NCBI GenBank assembly: GCA_041397365.1
Contig: JAWKWT010000012.1
Coordinates: forward strand, 25,165 to 89,164
Source of the DNA: Xanthobacteraceae bacterium
Lineage (GTDB): Bacteria > Pseudomonadota > Alphaproteobacteria > Rhizobiales > Xanthobacteraceae
Length of the DNA: 64,000 nt
Reading direction: 5' to 3'
The translations under genes and the position numbers were made by a program. Shown here one piece after another: positions 3,312 through 49,235 of this stretch; the stretch's first letter is position 1; the number at the start of each line of letters is the position of its first letter. The notes beneath the pieces are model-generated. The model saw nothing but the letters and a program-made list of their open reading frames with translations. It searched no databases and was not told where the DNA came from.

Positions 3312-3809
3312 ATGATGGCGAACGGCTGGCGCATTACGACTTTCAACGGCCTCCTGCTGGCGGTCTATTTTGTGCCGGTGTGGATGTCGGCGCTGTTGAA
3401 GATCGTGATCTTTCCGCTGCGCGGCATCTATGACCGGGCGAATATCGGCCCGGCAATGTTCGCCAACGACTATTTCGCTTTCACGACACTCGGCATGGTG
3501 CGGTTCGCCTGGCTGCTCGCACTCGCGAAATTTCTGGTCGTGACCTATTTCGCGCTGTTCGCGGTTCTGTCGCTCGGCCTGTCGCGGCGGGAGTCGGGCG
3601 CGAGCGACGAGCCGCTCGCCTTCGCGCTGGCGGTCGGGGGGCTCGTGAGCGGCGTCAGCATGATTCTGGCGGCGAAGGTCGGCGAGACGGCGGCGATGCA
3701 GTTGCACGCGACCGAGACGCTGATGCTTGTATCGGGCCTCGTTCTGCTGGTGGTCGATTCGCGCAGCTACGGCGTGCCGCGGCGTGTGCCCGCGCAGCAG
3801 CCGGCCTGA
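3312..3809 (+). CDS. hypothetical polytopic membrane protein
   Basis: ORF 3297..3809 has several hydrophobic helices (LLLAVYFVPVWMSALLKIVIF, FAWLLALAKFLVVTYFALFAVL, LMLVSGLVLLVV). First ATG is at 3312; the TTG at 3297 is also possible. Confidence 0.6.
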   Translation: MMANGWRITTFNGLLLAVYFVPVWMSALLKIVIFPLRGIYDRANIGPAMFANDYFAFTTLGMVRFAWLLALAKFLVVTYFALFAVLSLGLSRRESGASDEPLAFALAVGGLVSGVSMILAAKVGETAAMQLHATETLMLVSGLVLLVVDSRSYGVPRRVPAQQPA

Positions 3810-40575: not shown

Positions 40576-41310
40576 ATGAACGACATAGTGACGGCCGGTA
40601 TTCTGGTGATTGGAGATGAAATCCTGTCCGGCCGGACCAAGGACAAGAATATCGGTTTTATCGCCGAATATCTGACCAATATCGGCATCGACCTGAAGGA
40701 GGTCCGGGTCGTCGCCGACGACGAGGCCGATATCGTCGCCGCTCTCAACGCGCTGCGGGGACGGTACGACTATGTGTTCACCACCGGCGGCATCGGGCCG
40801 ACGCATGACGACATCACCGCCGACAGCGTGGCGAAGGCGTTCGGCGTGCCGATCAACTATCACCCGGACGTGGTCGAGCGTTTCAAGAAGCGGTTCGGCG
40901 CCGACCTCAACGAGGCGCGGCTGCGGATGGCGCGCGTGCCGGACGGCGCGGCCTTGGTGGAGAGCGCGACCATCATGGCGCCGGGCTTCTGGCTCGGCAA
41001 CGTCATCGTCATGGCGGGCGTGCCGACCATCATGCAGGCGATGATGGACATCGTCGCGCCGAAGCTGAAATCCGGCCCGCGCATGCTGTCGGAGAGCGTC
41101 AAGGCCAACGCCCGCGAAGGCGACATCGGCGGCCCGCTGCGCGAGATCGCCGAAGCGCATCCGGAAACCGTGATCGGCTCCTATCCGTTCCTCGACGAGG
41201 AGAAGAAGCCGAACACCAATCTCGTCGTGCGCTCGCGCGACCCCGACAAACTGCGCGCGGCGATGGACGCGGTGCAGGCGATGCTCGCGACGATCAAGAC
41301 CGTGCGGTGA
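40576..41310 (+). CDS. CinA-like molybdopterin-binding (MoCF biosynthesis) domain protein
   Basis: [27 protein letters not shown]...[19 protein letters not shown]. Confidence 0.85.
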
Positions 41311-41329: not shown

Positions 41330-41839
41330 GTGAGTGCGTCCGCGCCCCCGCCTGAAAAAGTGTTTCCCGTCTCCTGGGAGCAGTTTCATCGCGACTGCCG
41401 CGCGCTGACGTGGCGGCTGAACGGCCTCGGGCCGTTCGCGGCGGTGATCGGCATCACCCGCGGCGGGCTCGTGCCGGCGACGATCGTTGCGCGAGAACTC
41501 GGCGTGCGGATCATCGATACGGTCTGCGTCGTCAGCTACGATCACCAGACGCGCGGCGAATTGCGGCTGCTGAAAGGCGTGTCCGATTCAACGATGAAAC
41601 TCGGCGAGGGGACGGGCAAGGGGCTGTTGATCGTCGACGACCTCGTCGACACCGGCAAGACCGCGCGCGTCGTCCGCGACCTCTTGCCGGACGCACATTT
41701 CGCCACCGTCTATGCGAAGCCGATGGGCAAGCCGCTGGTCGATACGTTCATTACGGAAGTGTCGCAGGACACCTGGATTTATTTTCCGTGGGATACCGGA
41801 CTCGCCTTCCAGCCGCCGCTCCGCGACGGCGCGGCGTAG
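41330..41839 (+). CDS. gpt: xanthine-guanine phosphoribosyltransferase
   Basis: [17 protein letters not shown]...[18 protein letters not shown]...[14 protein letters not shown] (PRPP motif)...WIYFPWD. GTG start. Confidence 0.9.
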
Positions 41840-48623: not shown

Positions 48624-48823
48624 CCGGCGTTTCCCTCGTTGTGTATTCTCAAGGCGATCCGCCGGTCGCGGCGCGATGCCATTGGCGGCGATGGTGGCAC
48701 GCGCCGCAGGCGGCGTAAATGCGCGCGGCCGCGCCGCGGTGTGCGCCTTGCGCATGCGGGAGCAGGGCAAATTCCGGCCGATGCCTTTGCGGACAGGCGT
48801 TTAAGTCGTATAGGTGAGCTCAC

Positions 48824-49115
48824 GCGGGCGTGGCGAAATTGGTAGACGCATCGGACTTGAAGGATTGAGTGCCCTTGGGGAAACCCTTGGAGCAGAACTG
48901 CTCAAAGTCGGGGAAACCTTCGCTGGCAATCCCGAGCCAAGCCTCCGCCAGGAGGAAGGTGTAGAGACTAGACGGGCGGCACCTACAGCTCACGAGCCAA
49001 GGTGAAGGGATAGTCCAGACCACGAACGCCGAATGGCGGCGGCGAAAGCCGAAGTGGTAAGAAAATCCGTGGGACCGCAAGGTCTGTGCCGGTTCGAGTC
49101 CGGCCGCCCGCACCA
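48824..49115 (+). tRNA. tRNA-Leu(UAA) interrupted by a 203-nt group I intron (exons 48824..48858 and 49062..49115)
   Basis: Acceptor GCGGGCG/CGCCCGC, D-arm GCG-AAAUUGGUAGA-CGC, anticodon stem UCGGA/UCCGU. The spliced loop is CUU|AAAA. Long variable arm, T-arm GCCGG-UUCGAGU-CCGGC, ACCA end. Confidence 0.85.
48859..49061 (+). ncRNA. group I (IC3-like) self-splicing intron
   Basis: It follows exon U58 and ends in G49061. GAGU (48867..48870) can form P1 with a U-G wobble. It has GAAA tetraloops. GAGCCAAGC...GAAGGUGUAGAGACUAGACGG (48955..48975) matches the recalled core of the Azoarcus tRNA-Ile intron. Confidence 0.8.
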
Positions 49116-49235
49116 GTTCTCCTGTTTCGATGGCATCCGAATTGTATGGTCGTGCGAGCCGACGCGCGGTCATCCGTGCCGGCGTTGCGACGGTGTCCAT
49201 GCGGGCACCGCCGCAACGATGGTCTGTCAGATGTA

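Follow-up and report, generated by a model that had tools for sequence, protein, structure and literature searches.

In the window, by which we mean the whole 64-kb stretch of DNA analysed here, a tRNA-Leu(UAA) gene with a precursor length of 292 nt lies at 48824..49115 on the plus strand, and its anticodon loop is interrupted by a group I intron. ARAGORN found no second tRNA besides this split gene in the 64-kb window. The locus and the upstream genes used for comparison are laid out as follows.

40576..41310, plus strand: cinA-like MoCF_biosynth gene (Pfam)
41330..41839, plus strand: phosphoribosyltransferase (PRTase) gene (Pfam)
48787..48814, plus strand: promoter-like element, TTGCGG (48787..48792), 16-nt spacer, TATAGG (48809..48814), read from the sequence
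48820..49200, minus strand: spurious 126-aa antisense ORF over tRNA and intron (gene-caller prediction)
48824..48858, plus strand: exon 1, with the acceptor 5′ strand, D-arm, 5′ strand of the anticodon stem and loop nucleotides C32, U33 and U34 (ARAGORN, joined exons)
48859..49061, plus strand: group I intron of 203 nt without an ORF of its own (Rfam RF00028, 100 homologues, covariation)
49062..49115, plus strand: exon 2, with A35, A36, A37 and A38, the 3′ strand of the anticodon stem, long variable arm, T-arm, acceptor 3′ strand, discriminator A and CCA (ARAGORN)

Exon 1 (35 nt) ends in ...GGACUU, while exon 2 (54 nt) begins AAAAUCCG and finishes CGCCCGCACCA. Run on the spliced sequence, ARAGORN calls an 89-nt type II tRNA-Leu(taa) with the loop CUUAAAA, a long variable arm and an encoded CCA; the UAA anticodon sits in a 7-nt loop, the discriminator is A73 and the 3′ end reads ...CGCCCGC-A-CCA. 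This is the same tRNA that a sequence-only reading of the DNA had proposed, and the exon and intron coordinates and sequence strings given there all check out on the window. On the unspliced region, the intron mode of ARAGORN returned a tRNA-Phe(gaa) and misplaced the intron by one or two bases. We rejected this call on two grounds: no site other than CUU/AAAA combines a U-1 in a U.G pair with an omega-G, and the long variable arm belongs to a Leu tRNA. The intron thus sits between loop positions 3 and 4 (CUU/g...g/AAAA, with U-1 and omega-G). The survey by Williams (2020, bioRxiv 10.1101/2020.01.27.920355) counts this arrangement, Leu.3Ug, among four classical tRNA intron types and defines its site on Nostoc azollae as 'CUU/a...g/AAAA', which matches the window and bears out the earlier proposal of insertion between U34 and A35, at the cyanobacterial site.

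The intron starts with G and ends in ...GGUAAG. A local search with the covariance model RF00028 (Intron_gpI), named beforehand as a check, aligned it over its full length (model positions 1-253) at 49.9 bits (E = 7.3e-12), although this falls 0.1 bit short of the gathering cut-off of 50. Rfam reports nothing for the intron at the gathering threshold because 49.9 lies below 50. Fifteen of 18 undoubted homologues likewise score under the cut-off, and the Rfam group I seed holds no bacterial introns according to Williams (2020). We treat the sub-threshold score as a weakness of the model and not of the candidate intron. The 203 nt are wholly occupied by ribozyme helices and contain no endonuclease ORF, so that homing via an intron-encoded endonuclease does not apply.

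A P1-P9 model comprising 61 pairs was drawn on the window intron and tested on an alignment of 101 sequences.

48855..48870, plus strand: P1, exon ACUU and intron GA with UUGAGU (48865..48870), loop AGGA (covariation)
48871..48893, plus strand: P2 hairpin with a GAAA tetraloop at 48880..48883 (covariation, helices 2-3)
48898..48903, plus strand: P3 5′ strand CUGCUC, partner 48974..48979 (covariation, helix 4)
48908..48935, plus strand: P4 (48908..48913 with 48930..48935) around a minimal P5 (covariation, helices 5-6)
48936..48960, plus strand: P6 (GCC/GGU) and P6a hairpin (CCUCC-GCCA-GGAGG) (covariation, helices 7-8)
48964..48970, plus strand: P7 5′ strand, G-(A bulge)-GACUA (covariation, helix 9)
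48974..48979, plus strand: P3 3′ strand GGGCGG (covariation, helix 4)
48980..49004, plus strand: P8 (CACC/GGUG), internal loop and P8a hairpin (covariation, helices 10-11)
49011..49016, plus strand: P7 3′ strand UAGUCC (alignment of 101)
49019..49058, plus strand: P9 three-way junction of P9 (ACCAC/GUGGU), P9a (CGCC-GAAU-GGCG) and P9b (CGGC-GAAA-GCCG) (covariation, helices 13-15)
49061, plus strand: omega-G, last intron nucleotide, at the 3′ splice site (alignment)

Every one of the 61 model pairs is a standard pair in the window copy. Among the 101 aligned homologues, 96.2% of cells are paired in this model as compared to 28-44% when the partners are slid by 1-3 columns; 28 of the 61 pairs show changes on both sides, and none of 500 shuffles reached any of the five measures. 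The split tRNA and its intron are far beyond chance. The conserved core comprises P3-P4-P6 and P7-P3-P8 with the P3/P7 pseudoknot; pairing in its helices lies at 94-100%, and compensatory changes occur in P3, P5, P6a and P8. The homologues were gathered by an exact 20-mer from the P7/J7-3 region, which biases the sample towards one sub-lineage and makes invariance in that region partly a matter of construction. This applies to P7, whose six pairs are all 100% paired but whose 5′ strand lies inside the search 20-mer; the 3′ strand lies outside it and is invariant in 101/101. The guanosine-binding G-C pair would be 48966 with 49015, adjoining the bulged A at 48965. J8/7 (AAGGGA, 49005..49010), just ahead of the P7 3′ strand, is invariant, as is J3/4 (AAA, 48904..48906) directly after the P3 5′ strand.

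At the 5′ splice site, the wobble between U48858 and G48867 in P1 is U.G in 101/101 homologues, so that the earlier placement of GAGU (48867..48870) opposite the exon end stands; A-U and C-G pairs of P1 are likewise found in 101/101 each, and both P1-extension pairs covary. The omega-G is invariant, followed by an invariant AAAAU, again in 101/101. P3 is 100% paired, with U-A replaced by C-G in 27/101, and so are P4 and P5, the latter consisting of CC/GG (48917..48918 with 48925..48926) and a 6-nt loop, with one C-G pair turned to G-C in 27/101. Compensatory changes affect four of five pairs in P6a, five of six in P8/P8a (A-U to G-C in 38/101) and all eight in P9a plus P9b. The MFE fold reproduces the three-way junction of P9. 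At -1.95, the precursor has a modest thermodynamic z-score. P2 of the window copy contains a tandem U.U mismatch and one bulged A; its compensatory changes fall on three loop-adjacent and two lower pairs, while in L2 the G, A3 and A4 are invariant across the alignment. The GAAA tetraloops picked out in the sequence-only reading cap P2 (48880..48883) and P9b (49044..49047), and both loops are conserved across homologues.

As defined by Michel and Westhof (1990) and in GISSD, IC3 introns have a P2, lack P2.1 and P5abc, and combine short P6 and P8 with a P9 carrying a GNRA loop. The helix plan of the window intron has this architecture. The window intron shares the 21-nt J6/7-P7-J7/3 string and GAGCCAAGC with the Azoarcus seed, and over the whole intron its identity to IC3 seeds is 60-78%. 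According to Williams (2020), the group I intron database assigns Leu.3Ug and the other three classical types of bacterial tRNA intron to IC3. Together with the covariance-model match and the covariation over 101 sequences, this upholds the earlier call of a compact IC3-type intron whose P1 contains a U.G wobble and whose last nucleotide is an omega-G.

How would such a precursor mature? By analogy, the 292-nt RNA would be transcribed and its intron would then fold into P1-P9. An external guanosine bound in P7 would attack the phosphate after U48858, the U of the U.G pair in P1; omega-G 49061 would subsequently take the place of the external G in the same pocket, and the 3′-OH of exon 1 would attack after this omega-G. 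The anticodon stem of the tRNA and a short P10 would hold the exons together, ligation yielding the 89-nt tRNA with its CUUAAAA loop. We infer this chemistry for the window intron because the group I mechanism is established. As to expression, the promoter-like element stops 9 nt ahead of the tRNA 5′ end, and Bradyrhizobium lablabi L032 carries a comparable CCTTTGC..(spacer)..GTATAG ahead of its split tRNA gene; blastn similarity between the two begins at 48781 of the window. A strict sigma-70 consensus scan found no promoter for the split gene, and 48787..48814 is at most a putative one. The terminator scan found none for the split tRNA gene, the sole terminator-like site lying upstream and within chance expectation.

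P5 is reduced to two pairs in the window copy. In Azoarcus, GAAA loops contact 11-nt receptors, L2 reaching P8 and L9 reaching P5. The canonical 11-nt receptors (CCUAAG...UAUGG) are absent in the window, where P5 is the CC/GG helix with its 6-nt loop and P8 reads CCUACAG...CCAAGG; receptors of another type may take their role. Might the intron then be a decaying, non-splicing relic and the locus a tRNA pseudogene, with tRNA-Leu(UAA) supplied by another gene? Such decay would fit the mismatched P2, the two-pair P5, the lack of canonical tetraloop receptors and the slightly sub-threshold RF00028 score. However, all catalytic-core elements are intact and the same as the invariant positions of the 100 homologues, no model pair is non-standard, and both exons are undamaged, with 95% identity to their Bradyrhizobium counterparts (p-distance to B. 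lablabi 0.045). The promoter-like element is conserved with B. lablabi, and a locus identical to that of the window recurs on three contigs from independent metagenome assemblies. A metagenome scan with the spliced junction turned up no intron-less close allele: its 14 uninterrupted tRNA-Leu(UAA) genes are only 70-81% identical to the window tRNA, hence come from unrelated taxa, and say nothing on recent intron loss or gain. We consider decay highly improbable.

The mismatched P2, the reduced P5 and the missing canonical receptors may make folding less robust or dependent on help. An intron that works in vivo, yet needs a host protein or RNA chaperone or high Mg2+ in view of its reduced peripheral tertiary contacts, would agree with a length at the short end of the range among homologues (203 nt; 200-279 nt, median 230) and with a P5 of 2 bp and no 11-nt receptor in P5 or P8. 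Conservation of the L2 and L9b loops across homologues speaks against it, though, as does the neighbourhood, which holds no maturase-like gene; equally compact IC3 introns, those of Azoarcus and Anabaena, are established self-splicers (Hausner 2014 review). Dependence on a helper is in our estimate unlikely, and we retain a self-contained, spliced IC3 intron as the preferred reading.

The minus strand offers a further candidate. Gene callers predict the 126-aa ORF on every metagenome contig covering the locus, including those with the identical sequence, and one could take this protein to be the real feature and the likeness to a tRNA and intron to be incidental. The ORF (48820..49200) matches no Pfam family, however, and the stop-free antisense frame is kept in only 40/101 homologues. 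What is conserved are RNA helices with compensatory changes and not codons, and long antisense open frames are expected by chance at 64% GC. The probability that a protein explains this locus is close to nil; the tRNA and its intron do.

How unusual is the split gene? The sequence-only reading had presented an alphaproteobacterial Leu(UAA) intron as out of the ordinary, and this did not survive comparison. When species-representative genomes were scanned with the 20-nt core string, 100 of the 120 loci among the matches listed were full-length tRNA-Leu(UAA) genes split at the identical CUU/AAAA site, a lower bound of at least 100. At least 64 reside in named Alphaproteobacteria (Bradyrhizobium, Caulobacter, Sphingomonas and others) and at least 24 in Acidobacteriota; at least 12 of the 100 are from cultured strains. 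Carriers include B. lablabi CCBAU 23086, Caulobacter sp. CCUG 60055, Bradyrhizobium sp. RDT10 (CP187939.1) and Paracoccus sp. ME4 (NZ_CP151276.1). An automatic classification of 19 loci as 'Ser' and several as 'Phe' was overturned by aligning the window exons, all of these loci reading GGACTT/...G/AAAATCC, that is, Leu(UAA). The class was catalogued in 2020, but beyond this survey entry we found no biochemical or evolutionary account of alphaproteobacterial Leu.3Ug members in the literature, and the Hausner 2014 review does not discuss proteobacterial Leu introns. The window gene is real, correctly read and ordinary, one more member of a classical intron class; split genes of this kind are common in bacteria of soil and water but mostly go without annotation.

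Whether such introns are inherited or mobile was the wider question raised by the first reading. In the window, the cinA-like and PRTase genes precede the tRNA with ~7 kb of other genes between, and tblastn places one or both of them ahead of the split tRNA, in the same orientation, at 17 loci from several alphaproteobacterial orders. This synteny is visible only at the protein level, a blastn comparison of the 10-kb neighbourhood with the 120 loci giving no flank synteny in DNA. Distances between introns rise with those between exons (Mantel r = 0.395, 0/999), and 82 of 93 copies have their nearest intron relative within their own class or phylum (50 expected). Because a cinA-like/phosphoribosyltransferase/tRNA-Leu locus is common to several alphaproteobacterial orders, mainly vertical descent is favoured; the conserved locus and the co-divergence of intron and exons point to it within Alphaproteobacteria. 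Descent was not purely vertical, since a neighbour-joining tree (without support values, and with a cyanobacterial seed as outgroup) splits some genera, scattering members of Bradyrhizobium, Phenylobacterium, Azospirillum and Sphingomonas into different places.

Could the window organism have gained the intron, or even the entire tRNA locus, recently by horizontal transfer? In favour of this, congeneric genomes carry different intron and exon subtypes, the mean intron distance between phyla (0.285) barely exceeds that within Alphaproteobacteria (0.269), and intact copies occur on 316-kb conjugative Bradyrhizobium plasmids (81.8% identical) as well as on enterobacterial resistance plasmids, whole-gene copies on conjugative plasmids being a route for transfer. 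Yet the cinA-like and PRTase genes that precede the split tRNA in many other Alphaproteobacteria also lie upstream of the window copy, and no IS or integrase gene was seen among the ORFs examined around the tRNA. Its nearest intron and exon relatives, moreover, come from the lineage that the flanking proteins indicate: the best tRNA and intron matches are B. lablabi and a Bradyrhizobium MAG, and loci from Xanthobacteraceae and Bradyrhizobium encode proteins with 68-77% identity to the flanking ones, in a window of 63.9% GC. An alphaproteobacterial host, as supposed at the outset, is most likely, and probably a Bradyrhizobium-like one (Xanthobacteraceae/Nitrobacteraceae) that has so far been met in metagenomes only. 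Recent gain appears improbable for this copy, and on the question of inheritance the comparative data point to vertical descent, with the plasmid copies as a counterweight. All in all, it is very probable that the window holds a tRNA-Leu(UAA) gene split by a compact IC3 group I intron that is spliced out, and that this intron belongs to a widespread lineage mostly travelling with its host gene.

The plasmid copies merit an observation of their own. Next to aac(3)-IId, an intact but unannotated copy of the split tRNA-Leu gene is present on ~1,270 resistance plasmids as well as in 12% of complete E. coli genomes; this homologue has a compensated A-U to G-C change in P7, and its expected exon junction is GCAGACUU-AAAAUCUGC. 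A DUF3883 gene tried as a tracer of the plasmid copy led to Stutzerimonas and Pseudomonas and is a separate piece of the mosaic, since similarity ends before the tRNA. In its spread through clinical Enterobacterales, the aac(3)-IId aminoglycoside-resistance module has a split tRNA gene of this kind as an unannotated companion, which is also a clue to an alphaproteobacterial origin of that module. This side observation may matter more than the window gene, which in itself offers little new. There is also a consequence for annotation: standard pipelines, with default ARAGORN (which, without its intron mode, reported no tRNA in the whole window) and the Rfam gathering cut-off, miss the split gene, list tRNA-Leu(UAA) as absent from the genome and predict a spurious protein of 126 aa on the other strand.

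What keeps the intron in place? By analogy to bldA of Streptomyces, it could be kept as a gate on the maturation of the sole tRNA that decodes UUA, a very rare codon in these high-GC genomes; through a splicing reaction that needs guanosine and Mg2+, UUA decoding would then follow the physiological state. The starting point is the persistence of an intron that lacks homing machinery at a syntenic locus in different alphaproteobacterial orders. Nine Pfam-supported window genes contain no TTA among 3,475 codons, so that very few genes would depend on this tRNA. Neutral persistence, precise loss being hard, explains the data equally well, and we regard a regulatory gate as very unlikely.

Among known systems, a tRNA-Leu(UAA) intron at the same site was reportedly found in a subsurface Pseudomonas-like gammaproteobacterium by Vepritskiy, Vitol and Nierzwicki-Bauer (in J Bacteriol, 2002) and is reported to have been the first such intron outside cyanobacteria; its host differs from ours in being gamma- rather than alphaproteobacterial. 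The Azoarcus tRNA-Ile intron is a model system for crystallography and cryo-EM. The intron of Azoarcus sp. BH72, in tRNA-Ile(CAU), belongs to the same subgroup and size class and has GAAA loops on P2 and P9 like the window, but resides in another tRNA and loop position (Ile2.5Ug). Its P5 and P8 both carry the canonical 11-nt receptor, in contrast to the 2-bp P5 and the variant P8 loop of the window, and its P9 is a simple hairpin instead of a branched element. The sequence-only reading had put the match at 'nearly base for base'. This holds only in the core, where GAGCCAAGC and the 21-mer GAAGGUGUAGAGACUAGACGG (48955..48975 in the window) are identical and CAAAGUCGGGGAAACCU is two bases off; overall identity is ~60%.

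Overall identity to the cyanobacterial Leu intron is the same, ~60%. That intron (Kuhsel et al. 1990, as cited in the Hausner 2014 review) shares host gene, CUU/AAAA site, IC3 architecture and the lack of an ORF with the window; the Synechococcus seed Sel1, however, has a different P9, is AT-richer and reads GCAGAGACUA rather than GUAGAGACUA in P7. In the neighbour-joining tree the cyanobacterial seed falls outside all sampled proteobacterial and acidobacterial copies, which, as it served as outgroup, is not an independent test. Proteobacterial Arg introns are closer (70-76%). The Agrobacterium-type tRNA-Arg(CCU) intron (Arg.5Ug, seed Rur1; 70% identity) has alphaproteobacterial hosts and the same branched P9 tail but another tRNA and site, and forms a cluster separate from all Leu copies in the tree; Arg intron copies with the identical 20-nt core appeared in Methylobacterium, Xanthobacter and Beijerinckiaceae among the matches listed in the same scan. 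Closest, at 78%, is the non-cyanobacterial seed Ncf2.Leu.3Ug (Williams 2020), from a different organism, in which host tRNA, splice site (loop position 3, U-1, omega-G) and helix plan are those of the window, down to the P9 three-way junction and the tail ...gcggcgaaagccg..ggu aag, the window differing in its shorter P2, P5 and P8 loops.

What is the insert that divides the tRNA-Leu(UAA) gene of the window? Re-reading the sequence placed exons and insert exactly, to the base, where the sequence-only reading had put them, and the strings quoted there were found at their positions:

48824..48858, forward strand: exon 1 of tRNA-Leu(UAA), 35 nt
48859..49061, forward strand: insert (intron), 203 nt, preceded by U and ending in G
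49062..49115, forward strand: exon 2 of tRNA-Leu(UAA), 54 nt

ARAGORN, run on the spliced exons, agrees with the proposed 89-nt product, a tRNA-Leu(taa) with a long variable arm, the loop CUUAAAA and A as discriminator, whose CCA is encoded in the gene; run without intron mode, it detects no tRNA in the entire 64-kb window. With the Rfam alignment and the seeds aligned in Williams 2020 (bioRxiv 10.1101/2020.01.27.920355) as guides, helices P1–P9 could be drawn on the insert, as expected from its earlier assignment to the group I (IC3) introns:

P1, with the wobble U48858.G48867 at the splice site
P2, with a GAAA loop
P3, P4, P5 (minimal, two pairs), P6 and P6a
P7 (with one bulged A), followed by P8 and P8a
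P9, P9a and P9b, branched, with a second GAAA loop
49061: omega-G

The 20-nt core string GGTGTAGAGACTAGACGGGC, used to scan species-representative genomes, yielded at least 120 loci. Alignment of the window exons to each locus identified at least 100 as full-length tRNA-Leu(UAA) genes, all split at CUU/...G/AAAA; among the matches listed, about eight are tRNA-Arg(CCU) introns, one carries C in place of the U preceding the splice site, and the remaining listed loci are cut by locus edges. In a MAFFT alignment of 101 sequences, the drawn structure left 96.2% of cells paired, as compared to 28–44% when the 3′ partners were slid by 1–3 columns. Changes on both sides affected 28 of the 61 model pairs, and none of 500 shuffles reached any of five measures. 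Compensatory changes fell into P2, P3 (U-A to C-G, 27 sequences), P5, P6a, P8 (A-U to G-C, 38 sequences), P9a and P9b. Invariant in all 101 sequences were the U.G wobble and the omega-G, both already singled out from the sequence, as well as J3/4, J8/7 and both P7 strands; for the P7 5′ strand and J7/3, which lie within the search pattern, invariance is partly by construction, while the P7 3′ strand lies outside it. The insert is a true group I intron belonging to the compact IC3 type and displays every structural feature of the group. It contains no ORF and hence no homing endonuclease, and is therefore no homing-type mobile intron.

Why is such a gene overlooked? The window returns zero Rfam matches at the gathering threshold. 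In a permissive local scan, positions 1–253 of the Intron_gpI model (RF00028) match 48849..49041 with 49.9 bits (E = 7.3e-12), and because the curated cut-off is 50 bits, the thresholded scan reports nothing. The proposed Intron_gpI match hence exists, but misses the cut-off by 0.1 bit, the sole group I test that the intron fails. Fifteen of 18 clear tRNA-Leu intron homologues also score below the cut-off, including those of cultured Bradyrhizobium, Caulobacter, Sphingomonas, Paracoccus and Azospirillum strains (loci L032, L109, L026, L084, L053, L103, L089, L063, L072, L095, L078, L050, L047, L081 and L097), and consequently go unreported by Rfam-based annotation. The Intron_gpI seed has zero bacterial members (Williams 2020). 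Gene callers instead predict a protein over the locus:

48820..49200, reverse strand: 126-aa ORF antisense to tRNA and intron; same ORF on loci L001, L002 and L009

This ORF is called on every metagenome contig bearing the locus; as it lacks both a Pfam match and conservation among homologues, it is a false gene, arising from the missed RNA gene. Separately, seven short-read Logan contigs from the window's organism each break off within the tRNA/intron region, at precursor positions ~178–180 (L003, L004), 216 (L005) and 263, in exon 2 (L006, L007, L008, L010). These breaks likely reflect a branched assembly graph, with intron core and tRNA exons common to co-occurring species.

The data cover the fold, the splice-site geometry and the intact tRNA obtained once the exons are joined; for transcription and the splicing steps, we infer a course from what is established for group I introns (reviewed in PMC3984707). 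The precursor would be transcribed, possibly from a TTGCGG-16 nt-TATAGG element that ends 9 nt upstream of the gene, is also present in B. lablabi, and was not detected by a strict promoter scan. An external guanosine, held at the P7 G-C pair, would attack 3′ of U48858; omega-G 49061 would next occupy the same site, and the 3′-OH of exon 1 would attack after omega-G, with the exons aligned for ligation by the anticodon stem of the tRNA and by a short P10 (exon-2 AA with intron UU 48865..48866). Given the reduced periphery of this copy (P5 has 2 bp, P2 a tandem U.U mismatch, and canonical 11-nt receptors are absent), dependence of splicing on helpers or high Mg2+ is a reasonable, if minor, alternative. 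Judged by its sequence, the locus is very probably a functional, spliced tRNA gene, a main reservation being the reduced periphery. TTA is absent from the 3,475 codons of nine Pfam-supported window genes between 38934 and 53206 (TTG, 19; CTG, 185), so in this genome the codon that the tRNA would decode is extremely rare.

Is the split gene inherited or mobile? The identical 292-nt precursor and the exact DUF892 neighbour were each found only on metagenome contigs. The tRNA/intron matches that lead the list come from Bradyrhizobium lablabi CCBAU 23086, with 86.8% over a 340-nt stretch that takes in the upstream element and an exon p-distance of 0.045, and from one Bradyrhizobium MAG. Proteins flanking the window gene share 68–77% identity with Xanthobacteraceae and Bradyrhizobium loci, and the GC content is 63.9%. 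The host is therefore likely an alphaproteobacterium resembling Bradyrhizobium. Two Pfam-supported genes provide a syntenic anchor:

40576..41310: cinA-like MoCF_biosynth gene
41330..41839: phosphoribosyltransferase gene

In at least 17 loci from Hyphomicrobiales, Rhodospirillales, Sphingomonadales and Parvularculales, one or both lie immediately upstream of the split tRNA-Leu and share its strand; in the window, ~7 kb of other genes separate the pair from the tRNA. Among the matches listed, intron and exon distances are correlated (Mantel r = 0.395, 0/999), and in 82 of 93 cases (50 expected) an intron has its nearest neighbour within its own class or phylum. Together with the cross-order synteny, this points to predominantly vertical descent within Alphaproteobacteria. 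Descent is not purely vertical, however, because several genera are scattered over separate places in a crude NJ tree, between-phylum distances hardly exceed within-class distances among the matches listed, and copies reside on conjugative Bradyrhizobium plasmids:

NZ_CP094524.1 6503..6792 (= L146 5001..5290): split tRNA-Leu(UAA), Bradyrhizobium sp. ISRA443 plasmid; same in ISRA435/436/437

This copy, on a 316-kb conjugative plasmid and ~750 bp from trb transfer genes, is intact (81.8% identity to the window, 59/61 model pairs) and could be a second, transferable gene copy in the genus. The chief value of the window gene lies in this synteny evidence for vertical descent and in the annotation blind spot it reveals.

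Two distinct subtypes occur within genera (L011 versus L022, Phenylobacterium MAGs; L032/L095/L077/L036, Bradyrhizobium; L049 versus L103, Azospirillum): one combines the exon GGACTT with a short P5, the other has the exon AGACTT, a long P5 and a P1 with ...ATTGGAGTGCCC. Either replacement of the whole tRNA locus or mis-binning of MAG contigs is suggested by this pattern. In the gammaproteobacterium Carnimonas nigrificans (L055 3956..4104, NZ_JAGO01000010.1), CRISPR-DR4 repeats lie ~600 nt from the split tRNA-Leu.

A blastn search with the window precursor matched 1,280 PLSDB plasmids, mostly from Escherichia, Klebsiella, Salmonella and Acinetobacter, 926 of them conjugative; in 1,267, the match spans ≥80% of the query, with ~75% identity. 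Representative copies are:

NC_004464.2 61823..62121 (= L145 6001..6299): pCTX-M3, 35 + 213 + 51 nt
NZ_CP032204.1, L156 4001..4299: E. coli chromosome
CP033563.1, L157 1111..1410: Acinetobacter plasmid

Joining the pCTX-M3 exons gives a tRNA-Leu(taa) of 86 nt. Of the 61 model pairs, 58 are retained in the intron, and alignment gaps account for the other three; at 36.8 bits, this copy scores under the Rfam cut-off. The plasmid copy is an intact predicted split tRNA-Leu(UAA) gene. It is flanked by the tmrB-like ATPase and aac(3)-IId genes on one side and by orf192 on the other, in a stretch regarded as spacer in the literature's 'aacC2-tmrB-orf192-orf228-orf1182-ISCfr1 module'; no searchable paper connects the module's terms with tRNA or intron. 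The plasmid-type copy is present, at ≥99% identity, in 636 of 5,426 complete RefSeq E. coli genomes, with no annotation under it; one Acinetobacter record has an overlapping 'hypothetical protein'.

Where might this module come from? The plasmid copy's nearest named loci among the matches listed are alphaproteobacterial (84% intron, up to 94% exon identity), and the closest non-clinical homologues of the tmrB-like protein are from Sinorhizobium meliloti (81%) and other Alphaproteobacteria. Metagenome contigs carry DJ-1/PfpI, AAC(3) and tmrB at 86–87% nucleotide identity to the plasmid module:

L154/L155 4127..5564 (Logan SRR35547097, JGI 3300053169): AAC(3)-tmrB pair, 86% identical in DNA to the aac(3)-IId/tmrB pair of clinical plasmids and preceded by DJ-1/PfpI

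Both are syntenic with S. meliloti (assemblies L151/L152) through ECF sigma, EF-hand and BA14K genes, and on the Acinetobacter plasmid, DJ-1/PfpI, aac(3) and tmrB are kept alongside the split tRNA-Leu, colinear with the metagenome block. As the core is alphaproteobacteria-like whereas the DUF3883-ISCfr1 part is Stutzerimonas-like, the module is a mosaic. Its resistance core, probably plus the split tRNA, seems to stem from a Rhizobiaceae-like alphaproteobacterium, which points to such an origin for aac(3)-II; we found no paper connecting tmrB/aacC2 to Sinorhizobium or Ensifer.

How does the window intron compare with known ones? Its insertion site is, as proposed, that of the cyanobacterial and plastid tRNA-Leu(UAA) intron, 'CUU/a...g/AAAA', and Leu.3Ug is among the four classical types of bacterial tRNA intron, each of them IC3 (Williams 2020). 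Identities of seeds from that survey to the window intron are:

Ncf2.Leu.3Ug (non-cyanobacterial): 78%
Arg.3Ug: 76%
Thr.3Ug: 72%
Arg.5Ug (Agrobacterium type): 70%
Azoarcus Ile: about 60%
Synechococcus Leu: about 60%

The supposed near-identity to the Azoarcus Ile core holds for two of three core strings, but the third is off by two bases and the likeness stops at the periphery. Nor is a proteobacterial Leu(UAA) intron unusual, as had been assumed: at least 64 named alphaproteobacterial and at least 24 acidobacterial species representatives have one, and a gammaproteobacterial case was reportedly published in 2002. With split tRNA genes counted in thousands by 2020 (Williams 2020), the window gene is an additional example of an already known intron class. 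One homologue, L117 (Acidobacteriota MAG CAVQZU010000061.1, ~locus position 3761), is the one with C in place of U just ahead of the 5′ splice site; its junctions, GGACTC/AGACCA...G/AAAATCC, give the anticodon CAA. This fits the 'Leu.3Cg' type, reported from Proteobacteria only (Williams 2020), yet here found in an acidobacterial MAG.
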